Of a DNA stretch of 64,000 nucleotides, positions 3,617 through 53,575 are shown in pieces; within the stretch, counting starts at the first letter, position 1; every line of letters begins with the position of its first letter. Source of the DNA: an uncultured Gammaproteobacteria bacterium (lineage in GTDB: Bacteria; Patescibacteriota; Patescibacteriia; Magasanikbacterales; UBA922); contig CAZFUL010000001.1 of assembly GCA_964522435.1 (NCBI GenBank), positions 117,075-181,074 of the forward strand. Direction: 5' to 3'. A model generated the notes under the pieces. That model was not told the origin of the DNA and did no database searches. It was given only the letters and a program-made list of their open reading frames with translations. A program made the translations under genes and the position numbers.

Positions 3617-3695
3617 AAAAAAACCGTTCCACTCTCCCTCGAAAATACTCGTATAGATAAAGTACTTTCGGTGGCGTTGGAACGGTTTTTTTGTT
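3617..3695 (+). terminator. Composite hairpin terminator (long stem aaccgttcca...ggaacggtt followed by T-run)
   Basis: Inverted repeat enclosing an inner hairpin, followed by tttttttg. Confidence 0.45.
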
Positions 3696-3722
3696 CACTG
3701 CCCCCGTTGTTTTTGTCGTCGG

Positions 3723-3908
3723 TCACTTGCGGCGTTTGGGCATCGTGTTTAAGGCAAATGCGCCAGAAATCACGAATAACGTGAGAGAAATATAGGCAAT
3801 CCACTCGGCCAGCCGAGGGAAGCCCAGGCCTTTGGTCGGCAGTGACAGCCAGACCGTAGCGAAGGAAAGCGCAAATGCTTTTGCGCTGATTCTGTTGATA
3901 GTTTCCAT
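3723..3908 (-). CDS. Small 2-TM membrane protein (61 aa) encoded in a G+C-rich islet
   Basis: Strong SD ggagga 6 nt upstream of the ATG on the minus strand. Local GC is about 50% against about 35% in the flanks. Hydrophobic profile with a basic C-terminus (MPKRRK). Confidence 0.45.
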   Translation of the reverse strand: METINRISAKAFALSFATVWLSLPTKGLGFPRLAEWIAYISLTLFVISGAFALNTMPKRRK

Positions 3909-4013
3909 CGATATCCTCCATCCTGTTGGGGGTGTAGGGCTATGCTAATAGCTCTTTTGCTTCTTGTCAACTGCTTGATTTTTTCCTCATGTTTCGCTAG
4001 TATCAATGCTATT

Positions 4014-4988: not shown

Positions 4989-5051
4989 GGGGTTCTCTAC
5001 TTTATTAGTCTTTTTTTACTTATTTTAGCAAAATTTAATAATATATATCCC

Positions 5052-5079
5052 AAAAGCCTCTTGACAAAAGGCTTTTTTT
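5052..5079 (+). terminator. Hairpin aaaagcc(11 nt)ggctttt plus T-run after dus
   Basis: Seen in sequence. It overlaps the promoter below. Confidence 0.5.
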
Positions 5080-5089
5080 GTGCTATTAT
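5061..5089 (+). promoter_or_regulatory. Sigma70-like promoter TTGACA-17-TATTAT
   Basis: Perfect -35 TTGACA (5061-5066), 17-nt spacer and -10 TATTAT (5084-5089). It reads into GC-rich islet B and the ORF at 5790. Confidence 0.55.
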
Positions 5090-5255
5090 GTTTCGTTATC
5101 GTCGTATTTCATAACAGCAGCTATTGCCTGTTATTATGAAAACCGACGAGTCGTGTGTTACGACTTACGGTCCAGCGGCATTCCTGCCGCGAGCTGCTAT
5201 AACTGACCCAAGCAGTGTAAATAAATGGGTCCCCGTGGCATGAAGGAGAATACCC

Positions 5256-5516
5256 ATGCCCAATCCCGGTGAAACCCCCAGCACCCCTGCCACCACCTCC
5301 ATGGTGGCGCCCGTCCAGCCGGCCGCCGAGGTGCAGCCGGATCTGGCGTCTGTCGCCCCGGCCGAAGAGCCCCCCACCGTCACGGCGGTGGCCTCTGATA
5401 CCGACGGTAACGGGCTCACCGACCGCGTCGTCATGACCGGGGGGGGGATCATCCCCCTGGGAATCGCGGGAGGGGGGTCCCGTCCCGATCGTCCCCGGAT
5501 GCGCGGTAGCAACTAG
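5256..5516 (+). CDS. Possible small Pro/Ala/Gly-rich protein in a very GC-rich islet (uncertain coding)
   Basis: AAGGAG lies 8 nt upstream of the ATG. The region is over 70% GC and has long ORFs in several frames, so the coding call is weak. Confidence 0.2.
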   Translation: MPNPGETPSTPATTSMVAPVQPAAEVQPDLASVAPAEEPPTVTAVASDTDGNGLTDRVVMTGGGIIPLGIAGGGSRPDRPRMRGSN

Positions 5517-5789
5517 CCCCTCGGCGGGACCTCTTTATATGTACGCGTTCTGCGTATAAAGAGTTCATCTTCTGAACGCAGCACCTGGCCGGTCGCGCTT
5601 TTATAAGCGACCCTGCACAAGCGCTTGACTGTCATCCTCTGACATTCGCGCGACCGGCCCCACAAAAAAGTACATCAATAGTGGTGTGCTTTTTTGTTTT
5701 TATGAGGAATACACTGATATGTAACCAAATTGAATTAAAGGAAAAATAATGATAGTCTAACAAATGAAATTGTATTTAATCGTATTATT

Positions 5790-9051: not shown

Positions 9052-10428
9052 ATGCCAGCAAAAAAAAATACAACCAAACGAACTGCCGCGGTGAAAACCG
9101 TTGCAACCAAAAAACGTGGAGTGAAACCCACTGCACGCAATACATCTCATAGTAAGCCTGTTGTTAAAAAGACAACGGCTTCAACAAAAAAAGCTCCTGC
9201 AAAACGCAGTATCATCGTTACCAAAACAAAAAAACCTGTCAGTAAAAAGCCGTCGCCTGATCTGCGACCAACAAATAGTCCTAGTAGAAAAGTACCACTC
9301 GAACCGGTGCTTCCTGTTGTTGAACCAACAGACGAAGCTGTGCGTATCCTGGTGCATAAAGGAAGAGGCAGAGGATTTTTAACAGAAAAAGAAGTAATCG
9401 CATTGTTTGATCGCTTAGAACAATATGTCTTTATTTACGAAGGATTTTTAGATTTACTTGATAAAAATAATATTGCGATTGTGGAAACCCCTGGCGGAGG
9501 GGGAGGATTACTCGGTCACTCAAAAGATCGTGCCGCCTTGTTATCTCATATTCAAGGCAAACAACCAGATGAAGAACGAGGGACATTTGACTTAGGAAAA
9601 ATATCTCAAGATTCTATTCAGATGTACTTGCGTGAAATTGGAAAAATTCCGTTGCTTTCTGCAGAAGATGAAGTGTCATTGGCAAAGAGAAAAGAGCGAG
9701 GAGACAAAATTGCAGAGCAACGCATGATTGAAGCAAATTTGCGCTTGGTGGTCTCTATTGCGAAAAAATTTGTGGGCAAACAACTCACCTTACTTGATTT
9801 GATTCAAGAAGGAAACATTGGGTTGTTTCGTGCGGTAAAAAAATTCGATTATCGTAAAGGATATAAATTTTCCACCTATGCCACGTGGTGGATTCGTCAA
9901 GCCATTACTCGTGCACTTGCAGATCAATCTCGTACCATTCGTATTCCGGTGCACATGGTAGAAACCATTAATCGCTTTAAACAAGTACAACGACGTTTAT
10001 TGCAAGATTTAGGGCGTGATCCAACACCAGAAGAATTGGCTGCGGAAATGGGTGAAGAATTGGTGAAAGTAAAACAAATTATCAAAATTTCTCAAGATAC
10101 GATTTCTTTAGAAACCTCTGTCGGCGATGATGATGACGATGATTCTCCGTTATCTGACTTTATTGAAGACGTAAAGAATGCGAGCCCTTCTCATGTGGCT
10201 GGGGTTGAACTCTTAAAAGAATATATTGATGAAGCCATTTCTCAATTATCTCCTCGAGAACAAAAGATTTTGGAAATGCGCTTTGGGTTGAAAGATGGGG
10301 TAACGCATACCTTGGAAGAAGTAGGAAAAGAATTTGATGTGACACGTGAACGTATCCGTCAAATTGAAGCAAAAGCTTTGGAAAAAATAAAAAACTTTGA
10401 TGTAATCCAAAAGTTGCAGGATTACTAA
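9052..10428 (+). CDS. rpoD: RNA polymerase sigma-70 factor RpoD with a Lys/Ala/Pro-rich N-terminal extension
   Basis: Regions 2-4 motifs ([40 protein letters not shown]; region 4 [22 protein letters not shown]). N-terminal ~90 aa resembles histone H1. Confidence 0.9.
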
Positions 10429-27383: not shown

Positions 27384-28127
27384 ATGACCATGCAACTGTT
27401 GGGTGTCTTTTTTGTTGGCCTCGCCGCGAGTTTTTTAAGCGGTATTGCGGGAGGTGGCGCTGGGCTTATTACCATTCCCTTATTAATATTTTTAGGAATT
27501 GATCCAAAAATTACCGCAGCAACAACTACCTTTGGGGGATTAGGATTGGGGATAGGCGCGTTGTTTCGCTTTCGTAAGGAAAAAAATTTACGAAAACAAT
27601 ATAGTAAACCTTTCACTCTTATTTCTATATTTGCCGGATTGTGTGGACCCTTTATATTATTTTTCTTAGAGAGTAGTTGGGTAAAAATCGTTGTGGGTTC
27701 TATTATATTACTTATTGTTCCTTTGTTTTTGTTAAAGAAAAAGATTGGAACAGAACAAAAAGAAACAAGTCAAAGAAAAAAAATTATTGGCTATCTCTTG
27801 TATGCGTTGCTGTTAACCTTGCAAGTGGCCTTTGGCTCTGGGATTGGCATTGCTATCATTTTTGTCTTGGTGGCATTTTTTGGGCTTACCTTAATAGAAA
27901 CAAGTGCAACATTACGGTTACCACAACTGGTTTCTTCTTTTATCTCTCTGTTTTTATATGGCTATCAAGGATTATTAGATTATCGTTATGGAATAGTGCT
28001 TATGCTTGCGATGATTTTGGGAGGGTATCTGGGTTCTCATGTGGCAATAAAAGCGGGTAATGCGGTTATTCGCTGGGTTTTTGCTGCTATGGCAGCGATC
28101 CTCGCGGTAATCTTGTTGATTCAATAA
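27384..28127 (+). CDS. TauE/SafE (TSUP) family membrane transporter
   Basis: GIAGGGAGLITIPLLIFLG repeat motif. Polytopic. Confidence 0.75.
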   Translation: MTMQLLGVFFVGLAASFLSGIAGGGAGLITIPLLIFLGIDPKITAATTTFGGLGLGIGALFRFRKEKNLRKQYSKPFTLISIFAGLCGPFILFFLESSWVKIVVGSIILLIVPLFLLKKKIGTEQKETSQRKKIIGYLLYALLLTLQVAFGSGIGIAIIFVLVAFFGLTLIETSATLRLPQLVSSFISLFLYGYQGLLDYRYGIVLMLAMILGGYLGSHVAIKAGNAVIRWVFAAMAAILAVILLIQ

Positions 28128-28131
28128 AACA

Positions 28132-28164
28132 AAAACCCTATACCGTTCTGGTACAGGGTTTTTG
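28132..28164 (+). terminator. Rho-independent terminator (ccctgtacc.../ggtacaggg + T-run)
   Basis: aaaaaccctataccgttctggtacagggttttt. Confidence 0.55.
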
Positions 28165-28238
28165 AATTGCTCCGACGGGGGTGGGGAACTGCCGAAGCAA
28201 TTCATCCGCGTCGTCGGGGCGGAACTCCTTGTTTGTCG

Positions 28239-28760
28239 TCAGGGGGTCCCTGTATTGTACGGGTCAAGGAAGATGAACCGTTCTTCTTTGGGATAGTACC
28301 CTGGGTATACCGTCCAGACCGTGAAGTGCCATTGCTGGTTGCGCTCTTTGCGCATCCGAACTTTCATGGTGAGTTGGGTAGTTTTTGGAGCCAGGATGAG
28401 CTCCTTGGGGAGGACGGGAATCCCGGATGACGGCCTTCTCAGCTGCTGTTGCAAGTATGGCTGGGTGGGGACACGGGTCACCCAGCCAATATGGCGGGGA
28501 AGACTCAGGGTGATCGAATGATCTTCTTTACCCCGTTCAATTGCGCTGCGCAGGGCCGCGCCCAAGTGTGCAGCAACCTCTTGGTCATCGACGCAGGCTT
28601 GCAGGTTTGGCCAGGCAGAAATATTTCCGGCCAGTGGAGCGCCTGCCAGACGGAAATGGTCAGTTTGTACCTGGACTATGGTCTCGTGGGGAAAGATGAC
28701 CTTGACCACCGGTGCGCCGTCCGGTCCCATAGGAAGGATCAGATATTTGGCGAAAAGCAT
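28239..28760 (-). CDS. Hypothetical protein (173 aa) in GC-rich islet C
   Basis: RBS aaggaa upstream of the ATG on the minus strand. GC about 55%. The + strand ORFs here are shadow ORFs. Confidence 0.45.
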   Translation of the reverse strand: MLFAKYLILPMGPDGAPVVKVIFPHETIVQVQTDHFRLAGAPLAGNISAWPNLQACVDDQEVAAHLGAALRSAIERGKEDHSITLSLPRHIGWVTRVPTQPYLQQQLRRPSSGIPVLPKELILAPKTTQLTMKVRMRKERNQQWHFTVWTVYPGYYPKEERFIFLDPYNTGTP

Positions 28761-28772
28761 GAACGTTTCCTT

Positions 28773-29375
28773 TCAGTTGTTGTGTTTTTTGTTCATGTGG
28801 CGAATTGCGATTGCCACACTGCCGTTGCCCATCACCCCGATGAGGATGGGGTGTACGAGGGATACCAGTTGTTGCTCTGGCTGCCAGTGGATGACCAGGT
28901 TCGTAGTCATGATCATATACGACACCACCGCAATGTACCAGGGCAAGATGTTTTCTTTGTTGCCTTTGAGTACACCGAGGACGGTGGGAATGAACGATAG
29001 CACATATACTGCTTGAAGCAGCAAGTTGGCCATTACATCATCACCGCTGGTACGCCAGTAGTAGACAATGACGCCGGCGATTGCCAGAATCATCCATTCT
29101 GTTGGCCCGATTTTGCTAAAGCGCTTGTTGAACGCTGCGTAGCCAAGGATCAAAAGCGATCCGAGGCATGCTGCGCCAGTTGCTGCCCAGCGGCTCAGGT
29201 CACCATCTACCACTTTGAAATAGGTGACTGAGTTGACCACATTGACGCTGCCCCAAATTGCCCAGGTTGCGGCGTTTGGGGTGATATTGCCCTTGATCAC
29301 GTAGTACAGGTACATGCTGAGCAAGAGTAGCACACCCGACATTGAAATGAGTGAAAGAATATCAATGAGCGCCAT
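28773..29375 (-). CDS. Hypothetical polytopic membrane protein (about 200 aa) in GC-rich islet C
   Basis: RBS aaggag 6 nt upstream of the internal ATG (MALIDIL...). The longer ORF to 29429 was rejected as an upstream extension. Confidence 0.45.
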   Translation of the reverse strand: MALIDILSLISMSGVLLLLSMYLYYVIKGNITPNAATWAIWGSVNVVNSVTYFKVVDGDLSRWAATGAACLGSLLILGYAAFNKRFSKIGPTEWMILAIAGVIVYYWRTSGDDVMANLLLQAVYVLSFIPTVLGVLKGNKENILPWYIAVVSYMIMTTNLVIHWQPEQQLVSLVHPILIGVMGNGSVAIAIRHMNKKHNN

Positions 29376-29427
29376 TGCAGGCTCCTTTGTCTGACGTTTT
29401 TCTTGGCAGAGACTAGAATAGAACATC

Positions 29428-30288
29428 ATGATTTTAATCAGTTGTCAATATAGCGTATGTATGGGAAAATATTCGTATATGCGTGATACCACACACAACA
29501 GAGCATGGGTACGAAACATCGGTATTGTCTGTTTTATTTTTATCCAATTCTTGGGAATTGCCATTAATCTTATAAAGCAGCAAGATTGTTATAAACAAGA
29601 GCAGTCCATAGAGCAACAGTTTTCCAGCAGGCAAGAAGGAGATGTTCGTGTATTAAAAGAAGATATGCTCAATCATTTTGATTGTGGCATGTCGTTTGGC
29701 GTGCCTGCGCCTATTGTCTATGTCAAAGATGATACAGGCAGTGTTGGGGTATTGCCTCAAAGTATTGTGTTTAATATTGTGCTCTATGCTGCCGTTTTTT
29801 TTGCGGTTATGCGTGGGTATGCCTTGTTCAAACAACAGCGCTATACGCGTGTAGGTGTGGAAAGCATATTGTGTATTGTGGGATTGTTTATTGCTGCTAT
29901 ATTATTGCAATTATCGTTTCGGTATAGTGGGCTTATGTATACCGGAGGGCCTGTAATACGATTTCCTTCGTTGATACCATCAACACAGTCGTTTGTGGAT
30001 ATAGGGGCTGAGTATGTGTTTTATGTTCTTACTATGCTTGCCGCAGGATTTTTTTCTGTATATACCTGGTATGGTTATGCGGCAATTATTTTTTTATATC
30101 TTGTATTATTTGGAATCGTTGTATACCGGATACAAAAAATATATATACCACTCTCATATAAAAAATTGTTGACCTGGGGAATTGTTGGATTTATTTTTTT
30201 CTATCTTTTTATGTCGTATAGTGCGTTTATTACGCAAGGGGTGGTTGATCTGAATTGTTTACATAACAATAGTGGTTGTGACGGCTAG
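29428..30288 (+). CDS. Hypothetical polytopic membrane protein
   Basis: ATG ORF with multiple hydrophobic segments. Start uncertain. Confidence 0.5.
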   Translation: MILISCQYSVCMGKYSYMRDTTHNRAWVRNIGIVCFIFIQFLGIAINLIKQQDCYKQEQSIEQQFSSRQEGDVRVLKEDMLNHFDCGMSFGVPAPIVYVKDDTGSVGVLPQSIVFNIVLYAAVFFAVMRGYALFKQQRYTRVGVESILCIVGLFIAAILLQLSFRYSGLMYTGGPVIRFPSLIPSTQSFVDIGAEYVFYVLTMLAAGFFSVYTWYGYAAIIFLYLVLFGIVVYRIQKIYIPLSYKKLLTWGIVGFIFFYLFMSYSAFITQGVVDLNCLHNNSGCDG

Positions 30289-31135: not shown

Positions 31136-31702
31136 GTGTTCTTATTCTCCTATTCATGTATGTCAACATCAATTCCACCATTGGTACAAAAAATAGGGAA
31201 CTGGGTATCTGCTATTCTTCTTGGTAATACGAGAGAATTTATTGCACGCATTGATGAGCGTACCCTCCACATGTTGCATGATATCGCTGAAATGAAAAAA
31301 GATATGAATGTGGTGAAACAAAAAGTAGATGAAATGAGCCCAACGGTAGAAATTTTATGGAAAAATAAAATTGCCCCAAGTAATTCTCCGCGTCAGTTAA
31401 ATGAACAGGGGCAGATTATTTTACAACAAAGTGGCATTAAAGAAATTGTTGATAGTAAAAAGACAGAATTATTTAATCGGGTCAAAGCACTAGAACCCAA
31501 AAATGCCTATGATGCTGAAAAAGAAATAGAAAAAGTGATGAATCAATTATTAGAGTATTATCCGGAATTGGTTGATACGATTAAAGATGGGGCATTTCGT
31601 ACGGGAGAAGATATTATTACCGTGCTGTATGTTGGCTCGATATATCTGCGTAATTTAATTTTTGCTGACTTAGGTTTTTCTATGGTTGATTCGGAAAAAT
31701 AA
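31136..31702 (+). CDS. Hypothetical protein
   Basis: GTG at 31136 in the ORF track. A more likely ATG start is at 31160. A TTGATT-15-TATACT promoter-like element lies upstream at 31104-31130. Confidence 0.5.
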   Translation: MFLFSYSCMSTSIPPLVQKIGNWVSAILLGNTREFIARIDERTLHMLHDIAEMKKDMNVVKQKVDEMSPTVEILWKNKIAPSNSPRQLNEQGQIILQQSGIKEIVDSKKTELFNRVKALEPKNAYDAEKEIEKVMNQLLEYYPELVDTIKDGAFRTGEDIITVLYVGSIYLRNLIFADLGFSMVDSEK

Positions 31703-31785
31703 TTATTTATACACAAGACAAGGTTTGACAAACATCTATTTAGGGCGTAGGGTAGAAACATCGTATGAAAAGATACTCAGTAAAT

Positions 31786-31876
31786 AATCATCGTCGTTAC
31801 AGCGACCTCGGATAACTTCCGCTAGGAATTGTTATCATTGAGGTCGCAGCAATCCCGCTATAATCGGGATTTTTTA
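31786..31876 (+). ncRNA. Candidate small structured RNA, unit 1 of a tandem paralogous pair (conserved 5' box, long hairpin, intrinsic terminator)
   Basis: aatcatcgtcgt box, then hairpin gacctcggataac...gttatcattgaggtc, then atcccg-ctataa-tcgggat plus T6. Confidence 0.4.
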
Positions 31877-31916
31877 TTTATTTATGAATAAGTGATATAT
31901 GAATTGTTTTGTGTGT

Positions 31917-32010
31917 AATCATCGTCGTCGCGTGGACCTCCGATAACATTCGTTAGGTATTGTTATCGTTGAGGTCCGCTATATCGCCACATTGGGCGAT
32001 ATTTTTTTTC
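31917..32010 (+). ncRNA. Candidate small structured RNA, unit 2 (structure conserved with sequence changes)
   Basis: aatcatcgtcgt box, then hairpin ggacctccgataac...gttatcgttgaggtcc, then atatcgcc-cacatt-gggcgatat plus T8. Confidence 0.4.
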
Positions 32011-32134
32011 CGTACATTATGGGAAGAGAAGGACAGACGATAGCAATATCTGATAGTAGCCTCTTCTCATAATCAGTAGCAATGCTGTTGCTGAACGTGG
32101 GAAGAGTAACGCTGTTGTATAGGAGGACGTTGTC

Positions 32135-32950
32135 ATGGCACCATACTTTTCTTGGCTGGTAGCGTCTGGAGTTATTGAACGAACAATGCCCGATGGAGGG
32201 GTGGTTCATGTTTCCACCTTGCCTGACGCAGCGGTGGCAGCTGCGGGCTGGTGGGGGACGGAAAATCTGCGTCCCGAGTATTGCTTGAGCGGCGGCTGCT
32301 TGTTTGATGCGCGTTGGCAGCTGCAGTTTCCTGCACAAAACAAAGGACACCAAGGCGCTGTTCGTACCTTGTCCTTGCCGCGTGAGCGCGATGATGCGTA
32401 TGCGCGTTTGAAGAAAGGACAAACGCCACTTGCCCTGCACCTGCCGAAAGGGCCTGGCGTGTATCAGCAGACGCTCATTCGCTGGCAAGCAGCGGTGTTT
32501 CGTCGCTTGCAGCCCACACAGATTCTGTACCATCTTCCGACCGATGAATATCGTGTCTACATTCAAGAGATGGAACAACATCTGGGCTATGCCGTTCCTG
32601 CTGCCTACACACAGCTTGACCAGCTCGCTGTCTCTATTCGTGCGCTTATGGTGCGGGAGTTTGGGGCTGCTCTCATGGCACGTGTTCGCTTCGTGCGTCC
32701 TATGCACACGCATGGAGTGAAAGATACGACACAGTCCTACCTGCATCCCTACTTGTTTCCGGAGTTGTATGGGATCACTCCTGCCAATACCGTTGGTGTG
32801 GAAGATCTTGTTGAACTCCGTCTTGCCTACGAAGCATGGCGCATGCGCGGACACCAGATTTCGGTGTACGCAGCTGCCCTTGCCCTGCCTCCTCCCTACG
32901 CAGATAAAACGCTGCGGCCTGGGGAATTCACGACCGTTGAGCTGATGTGA
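32135..32950 (+). CDS. Hypothetical protein (271 aa) in GC-rich islet D, strong SD
   Basis: taggagga lies 8 nt upstream of the ATG. GC is well above the flanks. The antisense ORF 31979-32854 is judged a shadow. Confidence 0.5.
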   Translation: MAPYFSWLVASGVIERTMPDGGVVHVSTLPDAAVAAAGWWGTENLRPEYCLSGGCLFDARWQLQFPAQNKGHQGAVRTLSLPRERDDAYARLKKGQTPLALHLPKGPGVYQQTLIRWQAAVFRRLQPTQILYHLPTDEYRVYIQEMEQHLGYAVPAAYTQLDQLAVSIRALMVREFGAALMARVRFVRPMHTHGVKDTTQSYLHPYLFPELYGITPANTVGVEDLVELRLAYEAWRMRGHQISVYAAALALPPPYADKTLRPGEFTTVELM

Positions 32951-33011
32951 TATACACCTCAGCTCCGGTCACCATCCCATAAATAGTTATTTTTTATTAT
33001 ACTATATCCAT

Positions 33012-34004
33012 ATGTTCTATCTCTCAAAAAAAAATCTTAATGCATTACGCATCGGGAGTTTATGTTGTGCGACGGGTGGTGGTTTATCGTATCGTGATCA
33101 TGGAAAAGCCTTTGATGCTGCGTTATCAAAAAAATCAAAGATTCTCTGTAAAGAAATAGCCGAATTTCACGCAACTGACTATCTTGCGTCTATCTATGGT
33201 GTTGGAGATCCATCACAAGTAAAAGGAGATTTTGTTTCTGTGATTAAGACAGGAGTAAAAAAGTATACACAACTCACTGGGATTACACCGAAAGGAATTA
33301 TTCCTGGAGAAATTGGTGCGGAAGGCTTAGCATTTCAGGCTGCTAGCTATCTTAATTTGCCAGTCGTTGATTCTGATTTAGTTGGTGGAAGGGCTGCTCC
33401 AGAAATTCAAATGGATGTATTTTCTGTGTACGATCTTCCACTTACTCCATTATTAGCGGTGAGTATGAATGGAAAAGAGTTATTTCTCAACGGTGCATTT
33501 GGCGCAAAAGAAATTGAAGGATTGATTCGTTTATTTTTTAAAAATAATGGCAGTAATGGATTACTTATTGGTTATCCTATACAAGCCAAACAGTATCAAC
33601 AATATGGAATGAGTGGAACGATTTCTCGGGCAATTGCTATTGGCGACTGTTTGTTAAAAAAGGATTTGCCGGGAGTATTAGAACATACTCAAGGAAAGAT
33701 TCTTGGTGAAGAAACAATAGACGCCGTCTCGCTCTCTAGTCAGGACGGATTTTTGCAAGGATGGCTTTCTCTTGGTGATATGAGTGTCTTGGTAAAAAAT
33801 GAATATATTCTGGTAAAGAAAAAAAATAAGATGCTTTGCCAGGCACCAGAGAATATTATGCTACTTGATAAAGACTTGTTTCCGATTCACAGCACACAGG
33901 TACAACAATATGCAGGAAAAAAAGTATCTGTGTTCGTTATTCCTGGACAAGGATATTGGAAAGTACAACGAGCAAAAAAATTATGGGATTCAGCAAAAAA
34001 ATAA
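33012..34004 (+). CDS. DUF917-family protein (hydantoinase-like fold)
   Basis: Glycine-rich ATGGGLSY plus overall family resemblance. Moderate confidence. Confidence 0.55.
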   Translation: MFYLSKKNLNALRIGSLCCATGGGLSYRDHGKAFDAALSKKSKILCKEIAEFHATDYLASIYGVGDPSQVKGDFVSVIKTGVKKYTQLTGITPKGIIPGEIGAEGLAFQAASYLNLPVVDSDLVGGRAAPEIQMDVFSVYDLPLTPLLAVSMNGKELFLNGAFGAKEIEGLIRLFFKNNGSNGLLIGYPIQAKQYQQYGMSGTISRAIAIGDCLLKKDLPGVLEHTQGKILGEETIDAVSLSSQDGFLQGWLSLGDMSVLVKNEYILVKKKNKMLCQAPENIMLLDKDLFPIHSTQVQQYAGKKVSVFVIPGQGYWKVQRAKKLWDSAKK

Positions 34005-41039: not shown

Positions 41040-41330
41040 CGGGCAACGTCTGGTGCGGGTGAAGAAACACCCGATTGGATGCGGTTATTGTTTCTTGTTC
41101 CTAACGCTCAAGAAACAATAGGAGAGTCCTTTGACTCTTGAGAGGGGGGGGTAACCTCACTCTCCCGAGTATCAGTGCGCTGCACTGGATCAGACGCCAG
41201 GGGGCTGAATCATAAACAGAGAAACGTTTTTTCCTCACTTCACACGCACAAAACGTACACCCTGCGGGGAATACTGCATGAAGTCAGAAGGAATAACGAT
41301 TCACTGGAGTGGTTCAGCTCCCGCTCCAAT
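41040..41330. other. GC-rich non-coding structured region (islet E) between convergent rplU and recR: candidate ncRNA
   Basis: No convincing ORF. Several stable hairpins (aagaaaca...tgtttctt; ctcaaga...gagtc-cttt-gactc...tgag; cagtgc-gct-gcactg). GC is well above the flanks. Confidence 0.3.
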
Positions 41331-41334
41331 TCCC

Positions 41335-41928
41335 TTATCTTCTGTTTTCAAATGCGCTTTGTAAGGTAATATCATCGGCGTACTGCACGTCAGAGCCCAT
41401 CGGCAGTCCACGGGCAAGGCGAGTTACCTTTATCTGGGGTGAACCCTGTTTTATTTTTCCACTAATATATATCATCGTGCTTTCTCCTTGCATGTCAGGA
41501 TTTAAGGCAAGGATAACTTCTCTTATTGTTTCTTTTTGTAAACGATCAAACAATTCAGGCAGTTTTAATTGCGCTTGTTGTTGTTCATCTGTGGTATCAA
41601 TGGTACCGCGTAATATATGGTAGAGACCTCTATAGGCCTTTGTTTTTTCAATAGCTTCTCGATCTTGGGGAGTAGCAACGACGCAGAGTATATCTTGCCC
41701 TCTGGTTTGATCACGGCATACCTCGCAAGGGGAGCTGTCTGAAAAGGTATAACAGCGTTCACAACTTTTAATCGTGTCCATGACTTGCTTTAAAGCAACT
41801 AACAGTTCTCCTACATCTTTTTTCCCTCTATGAAGGAGTGAAAAAACAAAACGCTCTGCTGTACGAGGACCAACTCCAGGCAGGCGTTTGAGTGCTTGGA
41901 TGAGTTGTCGGATTGGTTGAGCGTACAT
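41335..41928 (-). CDS. recR: Recombination protein RecR
   Basis: LIQALKRLPGVGPRTAERF HhH, a C4 zinc finger (CERC...CEVC) and a Toprim. ATG at 41928 is preferred over the GTG at 42003. Confidence 0.85.
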   Translation of the reverse strand: MYAQPIRQLIQALKRLPGVGPRTAERFVFSLLHRGKKDVGELLVALKQVMDTIKSCERCYTFSDSSPCEVCRDQTRGQDILCVVATPQDREAIEKTKAYRGLYHILRGTIDTTDEQQQAQLKLPELFDRLQKETIREVILALNPDMQGESTMIYISGKIKQGSPQIKVTRLARGLPMGSDVQYADDITLQSAFENRR

Positions 41929-48925: not shown

Positions 48926-49070
48926 TTGTGAACCTAAGAATAATTGATTGGAATTATAGTCTATGAAGAATTGAAGCAATGGAAAAAACTAAGAGAATCT
49001 TATTGACATAATTATCATTTTATGATATTGATCTCTGATCAATCAAATTTCTACCAGAGGAGGTACTCCT

Positions 49071-49463
49071 GTGCTGAATAAAATCCTGCTCATTGAAGAC
49101 GACATCGAGACAGGGATCTTGATCCGGGGGGGGCTGCAGGGCGTAGAGGATGAAAACTGGGAACCCCTGTATGACGTGTTCTACGCAACCAACCTGAACG
49201 ATGCACGGTTGCGGCTCGACAAAGGGGACATCGACCTCTTGATATCCGACACCTGCGTCGATAGCAAGAACCGGCCTGATGCCCACGTGCTGATCGAGGA
49301 GGTACGGCAACGCTACCCCAATATGCCGATTCTCGGAATGTCTAGTTCTGACTTCTACCGAGATATCATGTTGGAGGCGGGATGCAACCGCTTCTACACC
49401 AAATCACCCCGTGACCTGCAGTTCGCAGGGCTGCTGGAATTAGTGCAGGAGCTTCTGCCTTGA
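49071..49463 (+). CDS. Stand-alone CheY-like receiver domain protein, GTG start, in GC-rich islet F
   Basis: gaggagg lies 7 nt before the GTG. ILLIEDD, phospho-acceptor D in DLLISD, and T/K positions are conserved. GC is about 55% against AT-rich flanks. Confidence 0.6.
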   Translation: MLNKILLIEDDIETGILIRGGLQGVEDENWEPLYDVFYATNLNDARLRLDKGDIDLLISDTCVDSKNRPDAHVLIEEVRQRYPNMPILGMSSSDFYRDIMLEAGCNRFYTKSPRDLQFAGLLELVQELLP

Positions 49464-49564
49464 CGTAGCGACCCTCCATTTGTGAAGACTCAAAGGCAAG
49501 CGCGAGTATAAACGCTTCCAATCCCCATCCTAAAATTATTTTGAAAAAAAGTAGTTTGAGGATA

Positions 49565-49598
49565 AAAAATCACCGTTAAAACGGTGGTTTTTTATTTC
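49565..49598 (+). terminator. Bidirectional rho-independent terminator (caccgtt-aaaa-cggtg flanked by A- and T-runs)
   Basis: Seen in sequence. Confidence 0.6.
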
Positions 49599-49632
49599 TG
49601 TGACCCCGGTGGGGAATCTCACTGCTCGTGAC
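49599..49632 (-). pseudogene. Degenerate partial copy of the tRNA-Lys 3' end (variable loop, T-arm, acceptor 3' strand)
   Basis: tgtgaccccggtggggaatctcactgctcgtgacca versus the intact gtgaccccggtggggatcgaacccacgacca. About 30 nt of homology with a 7-nt insertion and substitutions. Confidence 0.45.
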
Positions 49633-49787
49633 CAGCTAAAGCGCTGGTCACTGCGCTTTGAGAAACCTTCGGGTTTCTCAATACTCATCCTCCGCAAGTA
49701 AGGGGGCGCTGCCCCCTTACCATCCCCCAATTCGATCCCCCTCGACCCAAAAATAAAACCCCCACATAAGTGGAGGTTTTATTTTAG

Positions 49788-49860
49788 TGACCCCGGTGGG
49801 GATCGAACCCACGACCATTGGCTTAAAAGGCCACTGCTCTACCGGCTGAGCTACAGGGTC
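49788..49860 (-). tRNA. tRNA-Lys (anticodon UUU); CCA not encoded
   Basis: Manual cloverleaf: acceptor GACCCTG/CGGGGTC, D-arm GCTC-AGCCGGTA-GAGC, anticodon loop CTTTTAA, T-arm GTGGG-TTCGATC-CCCAC. Confidence 0.85.
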
Positions 49861-49930
49861 ATTATTTTATAGAGAAATAATCGTTGACTATGATATACTA
49901 TAGCCTGAAAAAAGTCAATAATATTTTTCT

Positions 49931-52595: not shown

Positions 52596-53177
52596 ATGCC
52601 TCTCGATAAAAAATATCTGAATCAACTCCGAAATACCTTGCATGATCAAGCGCTAATGCGCCGAGAAATTATTAAGCAAGGTGGGGATGCGTTACACCAT
52701 GCAAAGCGCGCAATTTTTGCCTTGCATCGCGATCAGCTTGGTGAGGCAAAAAAGAAACTCGATGAGGCACTCAGTTTATTGAAACAATTATCCAAGCGGT
52801 ATGGGAAACAGCCAGAGATGCATACGGAAGGATCATATAAAGCAGCACTCGAAGAATATGTGGAAGCAGTATTGCTGTACCAATTTGTAGAAAAAAGAAG
52901 CGTGGGAAAAATTACCTCCATTGCCGTGCCGACCGATGTGTATTTGGCAGGGTTGTCTGATGTGCCCGGAGAATTATATCGCTACGCTATTCGCGCAGCA
53001 ACCGCAGGGGATACAAAAACGGTACAGGATTGTGAGGCTATGTCGAGTGATATATTAGCGGAACTTATTGAATTTGATGTGACCAAATATCTTCGCACCA
53101 AATTTGATCAAGCAAAAGCCGCCCATCAAAAATTAGAAATTGTCTTATACGAATTAGCGATTCGCGATAAAAAATAA
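52596..53177 (+). CDS. Translin-family-like protein (tentative)
   Basis: Overall helical pattern resembling archaeal/bacterial translin. Based on recall only. Confidence 0.4.
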   Translation: MPLDKKYLNQLRNTLHDQALMRREIIKQGGDALHHAKRAIFALHRDQLGEAKKKLDEALSLLKQLSKRYGKQPEMHTEGSYKAALEEYVEAVLLYQFVEKRSVGKITSIAVPTDVYLAGLSDVPGELYRYAIRAATAGDTKTVQDCEAMSSDILAELIEFDVTKYLRTKFDQAKAAHQKLEIVLYELAIRDKK

Positions 53178-53271
53178 AACAGCACCCGTTGACGGGTACT
53201 GTATAATTGACTAGGATAATCGGGTCGGTGGCGCAGGCCTCCAGACCCGCGCCGATTTCGTTTGTTTCTCC

Positions 53272-53493
53272 TTATCGATCGCGATGCTCTCGAGTGTTTT
53301 TGCTCACTCGTTGCATCAGTCGTTGCCATGTTTTGACAACCCAGCCGCGCTCGCGCTTGTGCAGATATTTGTTCTGCCGGCGATTGCAGTGTTTGCATTG
53401 GAACGTTGCGTAGACGCCTTCTCCTTTCATGAAGCGATCCCGATAGACCATTGTCTTTCGACAACATTTCGGTCCTTGGGGTAACCGTCCCAT
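53272..53493 (-). CDS. Small basic zinc-ribbon protein (74 aa) in GC-rich islet G
   Basis: ggagaaagg SD upstream of the ATG (minus strand). CC...CxxC pattern (PKCC...CKHC). Highly basic. Confidence 0.35.
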   Translation of the reverse strand: MGRLPQGPKCCRKTMVYRDRFMKGEGVYATFQCKHCNRRQNKYLHKRERGWVVKTWQRLMQRVSKNTREHRDR

Positions 53494-53575
53494 CACGTAG
53501 GCCTTTCTCCCGCATAGGGGGTGTGTGGGTGCCGATAGTATAGCGAAGTATATTGTCTTGTCAATTGTTTTGCGT

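Follow-up and report, generated by a model that had tools for sequence, protein, structure and literature searches.

The window (the whole 64-kb stretch of DNA that was analysed, 64,000 nt) carries on its forward strand a promoter, two short ORFs with similar hairpins and two intrinsic terminators, followed by a structured leader segment and an operon of two genes, with the short ORFs being placed behind a TTGACA promoter and ahead of the gene start at 32135. The features are as follows, with positions counted from the first letter of the window.

31725-31753, forward strand: leader promoter, read from the sequence, with TTGACA at 31725-31730, a 17-nt spacer and TAGGGT at 31748-31753
31765-31815, forward strand: leader ORF 1, encoding MKRYSVNNHRRYSDLG, with its TAA stop codon within the 5' arm of hairpin P1
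31786-31797, forward strand: conserved box 1, AAT CAT CGT CGT (Asn-His-Arg-Arg), the same in both copies
31802-31847, forward strand: hairpin P1 of unit 1 (region 1:2), -25.7 kcal/mol
31851-31877, forward strand: intrinsic terminator T1, a 7-bp stem (AAUCCCG/CGGGAUU), a 7-nt loop and U6, -8.0 kcal/mol
31899-31946, forward strand: leader ORF 2, encoding MNCFVCNHRRRVDLR, with its TAA stop codon within the 5' arm of hairpin P1'
31917-31928, forward strand: conserved box 2, AAT CAT CGT CGT (Asn-His-Arg-Arg), followed by CGC (Arg)
31932-31979, forward strand: hairpin P1' of unit 2, -25.1 kcal/mol
31981-32010, forward strand: intrinsic terminator T2, an 8-bp stem (AUAUCGCC/GGCGAUAU), a 6-nt loop and U8, -11.0 kcal/mol
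32011-32134, forward strand: structured distal leader (z -3.0), ending in an AGGAGG Shine-Dalgarno sequence (32121-32126)
32135-32950, forward strand: first gene under the proposed regulation, encoding a 271-aa protein of a small CPR-restricted family, with an AGGAGG-led ATG at 32135
33012-34004, forward strand: second gene under the proposed regulation, encoding a DUF917/S-Me-THD-like (hydantoinase-like) protein according to Pfam/NCBIfam

The two units share a 61-nt direct repeat (31785-31845 and 31916-31976) with an identity of 82%, and over their full lengths (31786-31877 and 31917-32010) they were found to be 74% identical (71 of 96 columns in a global alignment), both opening with AATCATCGTCGT; an earlier note on this DNA had likewise described two units of about 75% identity with a common start. 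Both copies present the same architecture, in which a long hairpin precedes a terminator hairpin with its U-tract; the folding energies are -33.7 and -36.1 kcal/mol, respectively (z about -6), and 0 of 200 shuffles were equally stable. The earlier note's reading of the stem differences as base-pair-preserving was borne out by RNAalifold on the two copies, which returned 16 pairs and, in 2 of these, changes on both sides, the two paralogues being the whole alignment. P1' differs from P1 by one added G-C pair and one G.U-to-C-G exchange, and in a further paired change a G-to-C substitution in the 5' arm is answered by A-to-G in the 3' arm. The terminator scan picked up T1 and T2, located 1-3 nt after P1 and P1', so that each unit does have a different terminator of its own, as had been stated; no sequence relationship exists between the two, despite the great similarity of the repeated 61 nt upstream. 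The placement of the pair immediately upstream of a GC-rich, Shine-Dalgarno-led gene also held, the gene with its AGGAGG-led ATG at 32135 having a GC content of 55.6% compared with 40.5% in the window. Between these terminators and that gene, the distal leader contains two copies of GGGAAGAG, each able to pair with CCUCUUCUC.

Between the two copies the box is identical at 13/13 positions and the stem differences are all compensated, while divergence is seen in the N-terminal part of the ORF, in the loop and in the stretch that links the box to P1, suggesting that the codons and the hairpin are both under selection. The duplication of these modules is most likely recent. A reading of the palindromes as DNA operators was also considered. 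An RNA hairpin is favoured by their position at +40 to +90 of the transcript, twice, by arms of at least 13 bp with loops of 12-14 nt and by the G.U pairs, which fall on the sense strand; the minus-strand fold is, however, of about equal stability, which leaves the operator reading as a less likely one. The degenerate hairpin pattern has 2 exact sites in 64 kb, compared with 0.00 expected, and the 12-mer AATCATCGTCGT has 2 exact sites and one site with a single mismatch (10133-10144), the latter within chance expectation (0.31). The exact hairpin pattern gave 0 matches in one genome per GTDB species, and a covariance model built from the two copies recovered nothing beyond the pair in the window or in 18 related loci, where the earlier note had looked to such a search for further copies. 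This particular RNA sequence therefore seems to be confined to the one genome.

The leader promoter was not listed by a generic scan because TAGGGT matches the consensus at only 3/6 positions. The ATG of the first ORF lies 11 nt past the -10 element, so the mRNA would be near-leaderless, and a Shine-Dalgarno sequence is absent ahead of both ORF 1 and ORF 2. Unit 1 may be leaderless, and unit 2, whose ORF lacks a separate promoter and begins 21 nt past the U-tract of T1, sits inside the transcript. Both units overlap the short ORFs in one and the same frame, and the 12-mer is therefore coding; the predicted leader peptides are 15-16 aa long per module and a His-Arg-Arg(-Arg) codon cluster is present in both ORFs. 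The Asn-His-Arg-Arg codons of the box are proposed to be the regulatory (stall) codons. Stop-codon reassignment was rejected, with TAA being the stop of 28 of the 45 long frames in the window, and so was stalling at rare codons, with CGT being the commonest Arg codon here.

Both genes of the operon are intact. The fold of the 271-aa protein was found to be closest to class-Ic aminoacyl-tRNA synthetases (aaRS; TrpRS-like) and to cyclodipeptide synthases (CDPSs), and the class-Ic aaRS-like Rossmann fold that characterizes the latter is present. The protein has no Pfam match even at E = 10, the CDPS family included, and no NCBIfam family, and it displays neither the sequence membership nor the catalytic Ser of CDPSs. 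A G53-x-C55 motif after the first Rossmann strand is invariant in the family and may correspond to the G-x-S nucleophile of CDPSs. The family comprises 95 clusters among 1.8 billion representatives, and its named members belong to CPR/Patescibacteria MAGs. The closest homologues show 41% identity for the 271-aa protein and 52% for the DUF917 protein, and no close relative of the window locus was found in the protein collections. In every locus with downstream DNA at hand, the DUF917 gene was found directly after the gene for the 271-aa protein. The DUF917/S-Me-THD-like proteins are probable hydantoinase-like ring-opening enzymes (cyclodipeptide oxidase paper, 10.1101/2023.09.25.559410).

The upstream DNA of homologues of the 271-aa protein was taken from Logan, ENA, JGI, NCBI and GTDB contigs, with lineage labels that correspond to Magasanikbacteria, Saccharibacteria, Parcubacteria/Minisyncoccia and Kerfeldbacteria, all of them CPR. 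A common plan was evident in 14/14 usable loci, consisting of a promoter, an ORF, an intrinsic terminator and then the strongly Shine-Dalgarno-led gene of the 271-aa family. With the window included, 15/15 loci have the promoter layout TTGAC[A/C/T], a 17-nt spacer and a -10-like hexamer (weak in several), and in 15/15 an ATG follows 5-19 nt after that hexamer. The homologous leader ORFs have 20-41 codons, and the intrinsic terminator lies 20-60 nt past the leader stop codon. Tandem units occur in four loci (the window, L002, L008 and L010), the second unit being without a promoter. Leader peptides of the related loci include the following.

L001: MSNFKSINNHRRSWRPNGLGGFYVFEIFMR
L002, unit 1: MNFTNHTIHRWNNRSSFGDFVCA
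L002, unit 2: MIRKTVNIFTHRWSHGFFFY
L008, unit 1: MKYIQNTFRRWHTESVSAIL
L008, unit 2: MITYSAYNNCSRRWSRILSAH
L010, unit 1: MSSFNYKQQHWLRRRSDEIGCFFVFEIRY
L010, unit 2: MIKNTPKLNHWGRRNFDSKIGVFLRFVLQ
L025: MDFKTKSNLFCKFYRNHRWMEISSGVYFSFTLHKTA
L026: MLFKQTKILFRRNWRHFYLLPIFIC
L029 (Kerfeldbacteria): MIITATIQQNRRHNNRHKPRVACFYLYSA

Most of the leaders contain a His/Arg/Trp cluster, often with Asn (NHRR, HRW, RRW, HWLRRR, NRRHNNRH and RRNWRH), and compared with the proteins of the window, these peptides are about 2-3-fold richer in each of R, H, W, F and N. H, R and W are ordered differently from leader to leader (HRW, RRWH, HWLRRR, RRNWRH and RWYH), and the Arg codons of the clusters vary as well (CGT, CGC, AGA and AGG); L001 encodes the box residues with other codons (CAT CGC CGC), and L029 presents AAT CGT CGT CAT, with the residue order N-R-R-H. 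Leaders of more distant clades are rich in Phe/Tyr/Trp (L016 and L017) or hydrophobic (L021 and L023), and the leaders of L016 and L017 are separated by eight non-synonymous changes and no indel. Outside the H/R/W cluster, the length, the C-terminus and the remainder of the peptides vary freely, and together with the varying order this favours codon content over a shaped peptide.

These peptides were also evaluated as functional products in their own right, either as RiPP-like substrates or precursors for the operon enzymes or as arrest peptides of the SpeFL/TnaC type, which would sense a metabolite while the terminators merely set the peptide:enzyme ratio. Small ORFs, at times in tandem, that lie directly upstream of two enzymes of unknown function and have a basic/aromatic motif in common are consistent with such a role, as is the aromatic or hydrophobic C-terminal part that follows the basic motif in the relatives, an arrangement that presumably resembles the SpeFL layout (HIRRxxH, then a Phe-rich part). 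Nevertheless, the unconserved order of H/R/W and the variability of the rest are more in keeping with regulatory codons than with a recognised substrate or an arrest peptide of a particular shape, and the significant complementarity between ORF and terminator described below is a hallmark of attenuation. Moreover, no known RiPP enzyme family was found by Pfam or NCBIfam, and a conserved recognition or core sequence like that of RiPP precursors is missing, the peptides being alike only in a short H/R/W cluster of varying order. A function of the peptides themselves was thus considered improbable.

In 14 of the 15 homologous units, the 3' part of the ORF was found to be complementary to the 5' arm of the terminator beyond dinucleotide shuffles, in a duplex test of about the last 16 ORF codons against that arm with 500 shuffles. 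The duplex energies ranged from -14.5 to -25 kcal/mol (z -2.8 to -6.4), and of the 500 shuffles, none was equally good for 10 units and no more than 6 were for the remaining 4. The sole unit that failed the test, L011, has its complementary segment just upstream of the tested part and switches in constrained folds. Constrained folding of the homologues with the ribosomal A-site at the H/R/W codons led to an antiterminator formed by the ORF segment and the terminator arm, while the terminator formed with the ribosome at the stop codon; owing to this complementarity, the folding switches between antiterminator and terminator with the position of the ribosome. The full 1:2, 2:3 and 3:4 scheme was displayed by the second units of L002 and L008 (L002-2 and L008-2) and by L016/17, with the free RNA adopting the 1:2 hairpin and the terminator, and the stalled state the 2:3 antiterminator. 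Compensatory differences were observed between the 2:3 helices of L002-2 (GAUCGUCUU with AAGACGCGGUC) and L008-2 (GAUCGCUUUU with AAAAUGCGGUC), and the ORF of L033 holds a near copy of the 3' arm of its terminator (GGGAAGAAGGUUGG compared with GGAAGAAGGUCGG). As modelled by folding, the regulation in the leaders of the homologous CPR loci is classical ribosome-mediated attenuation.

Apart from tRNAs, no Rfam family reached its threshold in the window or in the 14 related loci. The best match in the window was Trp_leader (RF00513), with 19.6 bits compared with a cut-off of 41 and E = 0.23, and the matches obtained at permissive thresholds (Trp_leader, snoRNA-like) were rejected as sub-threshold noise. 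In full-text searches of the literature, no paper turned up that dealt with leader-peptide attenuation in CPR bacteria or with their cyclodipeptide synthases. The kind of attenuator is not new, having been known for decades, but the CPR leader-peptide family is previously undescribed and is absent from Rfam and from the searched literature.

The units had been put forward in the earlier note as candidate small RNA genes, and stand-alone or dual-function sRNAs were accordingly weighed, in which T1- or T2-ended transcripts would act in trans through the single-stranded AAUCAUCGUCGU as seed, with P1 and the terminator as scaffold. A conserved single-stranded box at the 5' side, a stable hairpin and a terminator do make up a layout like that of bacterial sRNAs. 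The transcripts also probably end mostly at T1/T2; for this reason, any of the models would predict discrete RNAs of about 110-120 nt. The box is, however, coding, and lineages as far apart as phyla keep its amino-acid motif while the codons vary synonymously. A promoter is missing ahead of unit 2, the window contains just these two copies, with the chance-level site mentioned above as the sole other near-match of the box, no Rfam family matches, and in all relatives the position is fixed ahead of one operon, in synteny with one gene pair across CPR lineages. The units therefore do not combine a promoter and terminator of their own with a position independent of one operon, as trans-acting sRNAs do, and the small RNA genes were judged improbable. 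RNA antitoxins, another suggestion, were not supported either, with no small hydrophobic, toxin-like ORF on the opposite strand or nearby in the ORF lists over 31700-32010, where the minus-strand frames are extensions of antisense frames of neighbouring genes. For the hairpin, it was reasonable to argue from covariation between the paralogues to a function as RNA, but this does not turn the units into RNA genes.

The remaining suggestion, an attenuator pair, gained support from the operon leader, the coding box and the switching homologues, although no switch element was found in this genome. The window units are collinear with the homologous leaders, with P1 as the counterpart of the 1:2 hairpin in units of the second type. 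The 3' arm of P1 (TCATTGAGGTCGC) is identical at 12/13 positions to region 2 (TCATTGAGATCGC) in the second L008 attenuator, and the arms of P1 in the window, GACCUC...UCAUUGAGGUCGC, compare with GGUCUC...UCAUUGAGAUCGC in the 1:2 hairpin of L008-2 and L002-2. Like attenuators in general, the window has a leader ORF, a cluster of regulatory codons and an intrinsic terminator before the structural genes. However, the terminator hairpin was kept in the minimum-energy fold at every simulated ribosome position, with no antiterminator in the window, and a defining feature of the attenuator class is thus missing from these folds. The 2:3 duplexes of the window are weak (-6.5 and -3.9 kcal/mol) and do not surpass shuffles, blocking of region 2 gave no credible alternative to the terminators, and T1 and T2 are both without a complement of region 2 (GCGACCUCAAUG). 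Pairing between regions 1 and 3 (-8.6 and -8.5 kcal/mol, with p = 0.04 and 0.13-0.34) was rejected as an antiterminator, with shuffles or swapped partners being equally good. The layout of this 1:3 pairing is alike in both copies, with two short helices around an ACCUC bulge. An in-frame TAA, found at one and the same site in the two copies, makes the window ORFs shorter than any other ORF of the family, and they stop inside region 1. Taken together, the window modules are homologues of the attenuator family that should terminate at T1 and T2 by default. The window's copy, with no detectable antiterminator, is the one puzzling aspect of the family.

The failure to detect an antiterminator in either copy is also what an attenuator relic or constitutive insulator would show, in which the antiterminator was lost and two unregulated terminators remain in series. 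These would then stop transcripts that come from the leader promoter or from the gene upstream, the operon would be kept at a low basal level or silent, and P1 would serve only as a stabilising or processing hairpin. The truncation of the ORFs with respect to all homologues, by an in-frame TAA in the same place, and the unrelated T1 and T2 behind 61 nt with 82% identity are further points in favour of a relic. Nevertheless, the 13/13 box and the compensated stems amid diverged neighbours indicate continuing selection on codons and hairpin, the operon genes are intact, and the conservation of the NHRR codons makes little sense without a translation-linked function. A relic was consequently regarded as unlikely.

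The best explanation is that the two units are probably duplicated leader-peptide attenuator modules in tandem, located in the leader of an operon for an aaRS/CDPS-fold protein and a DUF917 protein. The promoter at 31725-31753 would alone drive a near-leaderless transcript, and in each module the ORF would end in the 5' arm of P1, with an intrinsic terminator following 1-3 nt on; P1 would be homologous to the region 1:2 hairpin of the related attenuators. In the relatives, a ribosome held at the His/Arg/Trp codons would allow the 3' part of the ORF to pair with the 5' arm of the terminator, resulting in read-through, and a ribosome reaching the stop codon would allow the terminator to form. 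In the window modules, most transcripts would end at T1 or T2, and RNA polymerase would enter the operon only under a translation-dependent condition, which is most plausibly a poor supply of Arg-tRNA or His-tRNA. For the window, we infer that the ORFs are translated and that ribosomes stall at the codon cluster, and likewise which signal would be sensed.

A non-canonical variant of this attenuator, working without an RNA antiterminator, was considered quite unlikely. It could possibly take the form of a terminating ribosome that melts P1 and thereby alters the efficiency of the adjacent marginal terminator, or of a protein or tRNA-related factor that binds P1. Occasional read-through of the TAA, which would carry ribosomes into the terminator, is a low-probability speculation; the frame past the TAA reads LGIVI(I/V)EV, like the C-termini of related leaders, and that of unit 1 stops in the loop of T1. 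If the variant were true, the His/Arg/Trp(+Asn) cluster would report the charging of the tRNAs used by the regulated enzyme, this enzyme, with a hydantoinase-like partner, would be a relative of the cyclodipeptide synthases that contains Cys and is specific to CPR, and a previously unknown tRNA-dependent small-molecule pathway in CPR bacteria would be under the control of tRNA charging.

CPR/Patescibacteria have tiny genomes in which gene regulation is little known, and the attenuator family described here spans several of their lineages. What is new in this family is the CPR host, the near-leaderless ORFs, the mixed His/Arg/Trp cluster, the duplication in series at several loci and the position ahead of an uncharacterised enzyme pair with a presumed link to tRNA biology. 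The family also highlights an uncharacterised, CPR-restricted operon, and the regulation through His/Arg/Trp codons hints at a link to tRNA charging for the aaRS/CDPS-fold protein. As a caution, an sRNA gene does not follow from structure-preserving changes between paralogous hairpins together with a "seed" of perfect conservation; in the present case the seed consists of a cluster of codons, and the hairpin belongs to a leader that acts in cis.

Several known systems resemble the window in part. The terminated transcripts have the shape of Hfq-type trans-acting sRNAs (a 5' seed, a stem-loop and a terminator), but the window differs in that its "seed" codes for amino acids, the units always lie in the leader of one operon, unit 2 is promoterless and no further copies occur in it. 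With the SpeFL (the speF leader) and TnaC peptides, stalling takes place at the stop codon and the effect depends on Rho. By analogy, the CPR leaders would share with them a short leader peptide, a His/Arg-rich motif, an aromatic C-terminal part in the relatives and control of downstream transcription; they differ in their intrinsic terminators, in the unconserved order of the motif and in a productive stall that is modelled at the H/R/W codons. The window elements are members of none of the Rfam leader families. With the trpL, hisL, pheL, thrL and ilv leaders and pheM of pheST, the window shares a promoter-proximal short ORF with regulatory codons, and an intrinsic terminator after the leader ORF and upstream of the structural genes, and the ribosome-dependent alternative structures 1:2, 2:3 and 3:4 of these classical attenuators also occur in the homologous CPR loci. 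The differences lie in the CPR/Patescibacteria lineage, in the near-leaderless transcripts, in a mixed set of His/Arg/Trp codons, often with Asn, instead of a run for a single amino acid, in regulated genes that are not a biosynthetic operon, in the two modules in series and in the lack of a detected antiterminator in the window. In tandem T-boxes and tandem riboswitches, the sensors are RNAs that bind tRNA or a metabolite. The window has in common with these two complete sensor-terminator modules in series under one promoter, the sensor being instead a translated short ORF, as predicted here, and two such modules in series would multiply the regulatory response.

In most of the loci, the gene of the 271-aa family, which has an aaRS/CDPS-like fold, was found to be richer in GC than its own genome (positions 32001-33000 of the window, and also L001, L002, L008, L009, L010 and L021). 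In the window, this gene reached 55.6% GC, compared with 40.5% for the whole window, and its adjoining DUF917 partner had 37.5%. Similarly, the gene in L008 displayed 55.4% GC against a background of 42.5%. The GC step of the window starts directly 3' of T2, the intrinsic terminator of the second hairpin unit, and the high GC of the gene could be caused by repeated horizontal transfer or by a constraint on the mRNA. Elsewhere in the window (40% GC), six more regions reach 50% GC or above, one of them with two minus-strand ORFs:

3651-4000, GC-rich stretch
5051-5750, GC-rich stretch
28051-29400, GC-rich stretch with the two ORFs
28239-28760, minus strand, ORF without a Pfam family
28773-29429, minus strand, ORF without a Pfam family
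41151-41450, GC-rich stretch
49051-49900, GC-rich stretch with tRNA-Lys within it
53151-53550, GC-rich stretch

The distal leader (32011-32134) was also found to be structured, with a fold of -40 kcal/mol and a z of -3.0. It carries two copies of GGGAAGAG, at 32021 and 32099, either of which can pair with the anti-SD-like sequence CCUCUUCUC (32059-32067), and its minimum-energy fold leaves the AGGAGG Shine-Dalgarno sequence partly paired. In L011, L016/L017, L021, L023 and L025, the segment from the terminator to the SD likewise contains additional strong hairpins, which lack U-tracts.

Outside the core of leader, 271-aa-family gene and DUF917 gene, the flanking genes vary and are different in every locus, as in these examples:

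L029 (Kerfeldbacteria), genes for a GATase/Peptidase_C26 protein and a creatinase-like protein
L002, GCS2 and GATase genes

In the lineage of L002 (128-699; also L003-L007), a RelB/YafQ-ParE toxin-antitoxin pair lies directly 5' of the tandem leader. Between the upstream 188-aa ORF of the window (31136-31702), to which no family could be assigned, and the leader promoter, no terminator belonging to that ORF was found, and its transcripts would also run into T1 and T2, the terminators of the two units.

The sole further near-match in the window to the 12-mer encoding Asn-His-Arg-Arg in the short leader ORFs (10133-10144, AATCATCGTCAT on the minus strand, reading ATGACGATGATT on the plus strand) lies within the range expected by chance (0.31). 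Read through its in-frame TAA, unit 1 (31813-31866) continues from a glycine and the stop into LPLGIVIIEVAAIPL, ending at a second stop in the T1 loop, and unit 2 (31944-32071) from an arginine and the stop into HSLGIVIVEVRYIATLGD and onward. Beyond the TAA, the units differ by two synonymous changes (CTA/TTA and GGA/GGT) and one Ile/Val exchange, too few for a test and at bases that are also constrained by the hairpin. The read-through sequence GIVI(I/V)EV resembles the C-termini of the L001 (GFYVFEI) and L010 (GCFFVFEI) leaders.
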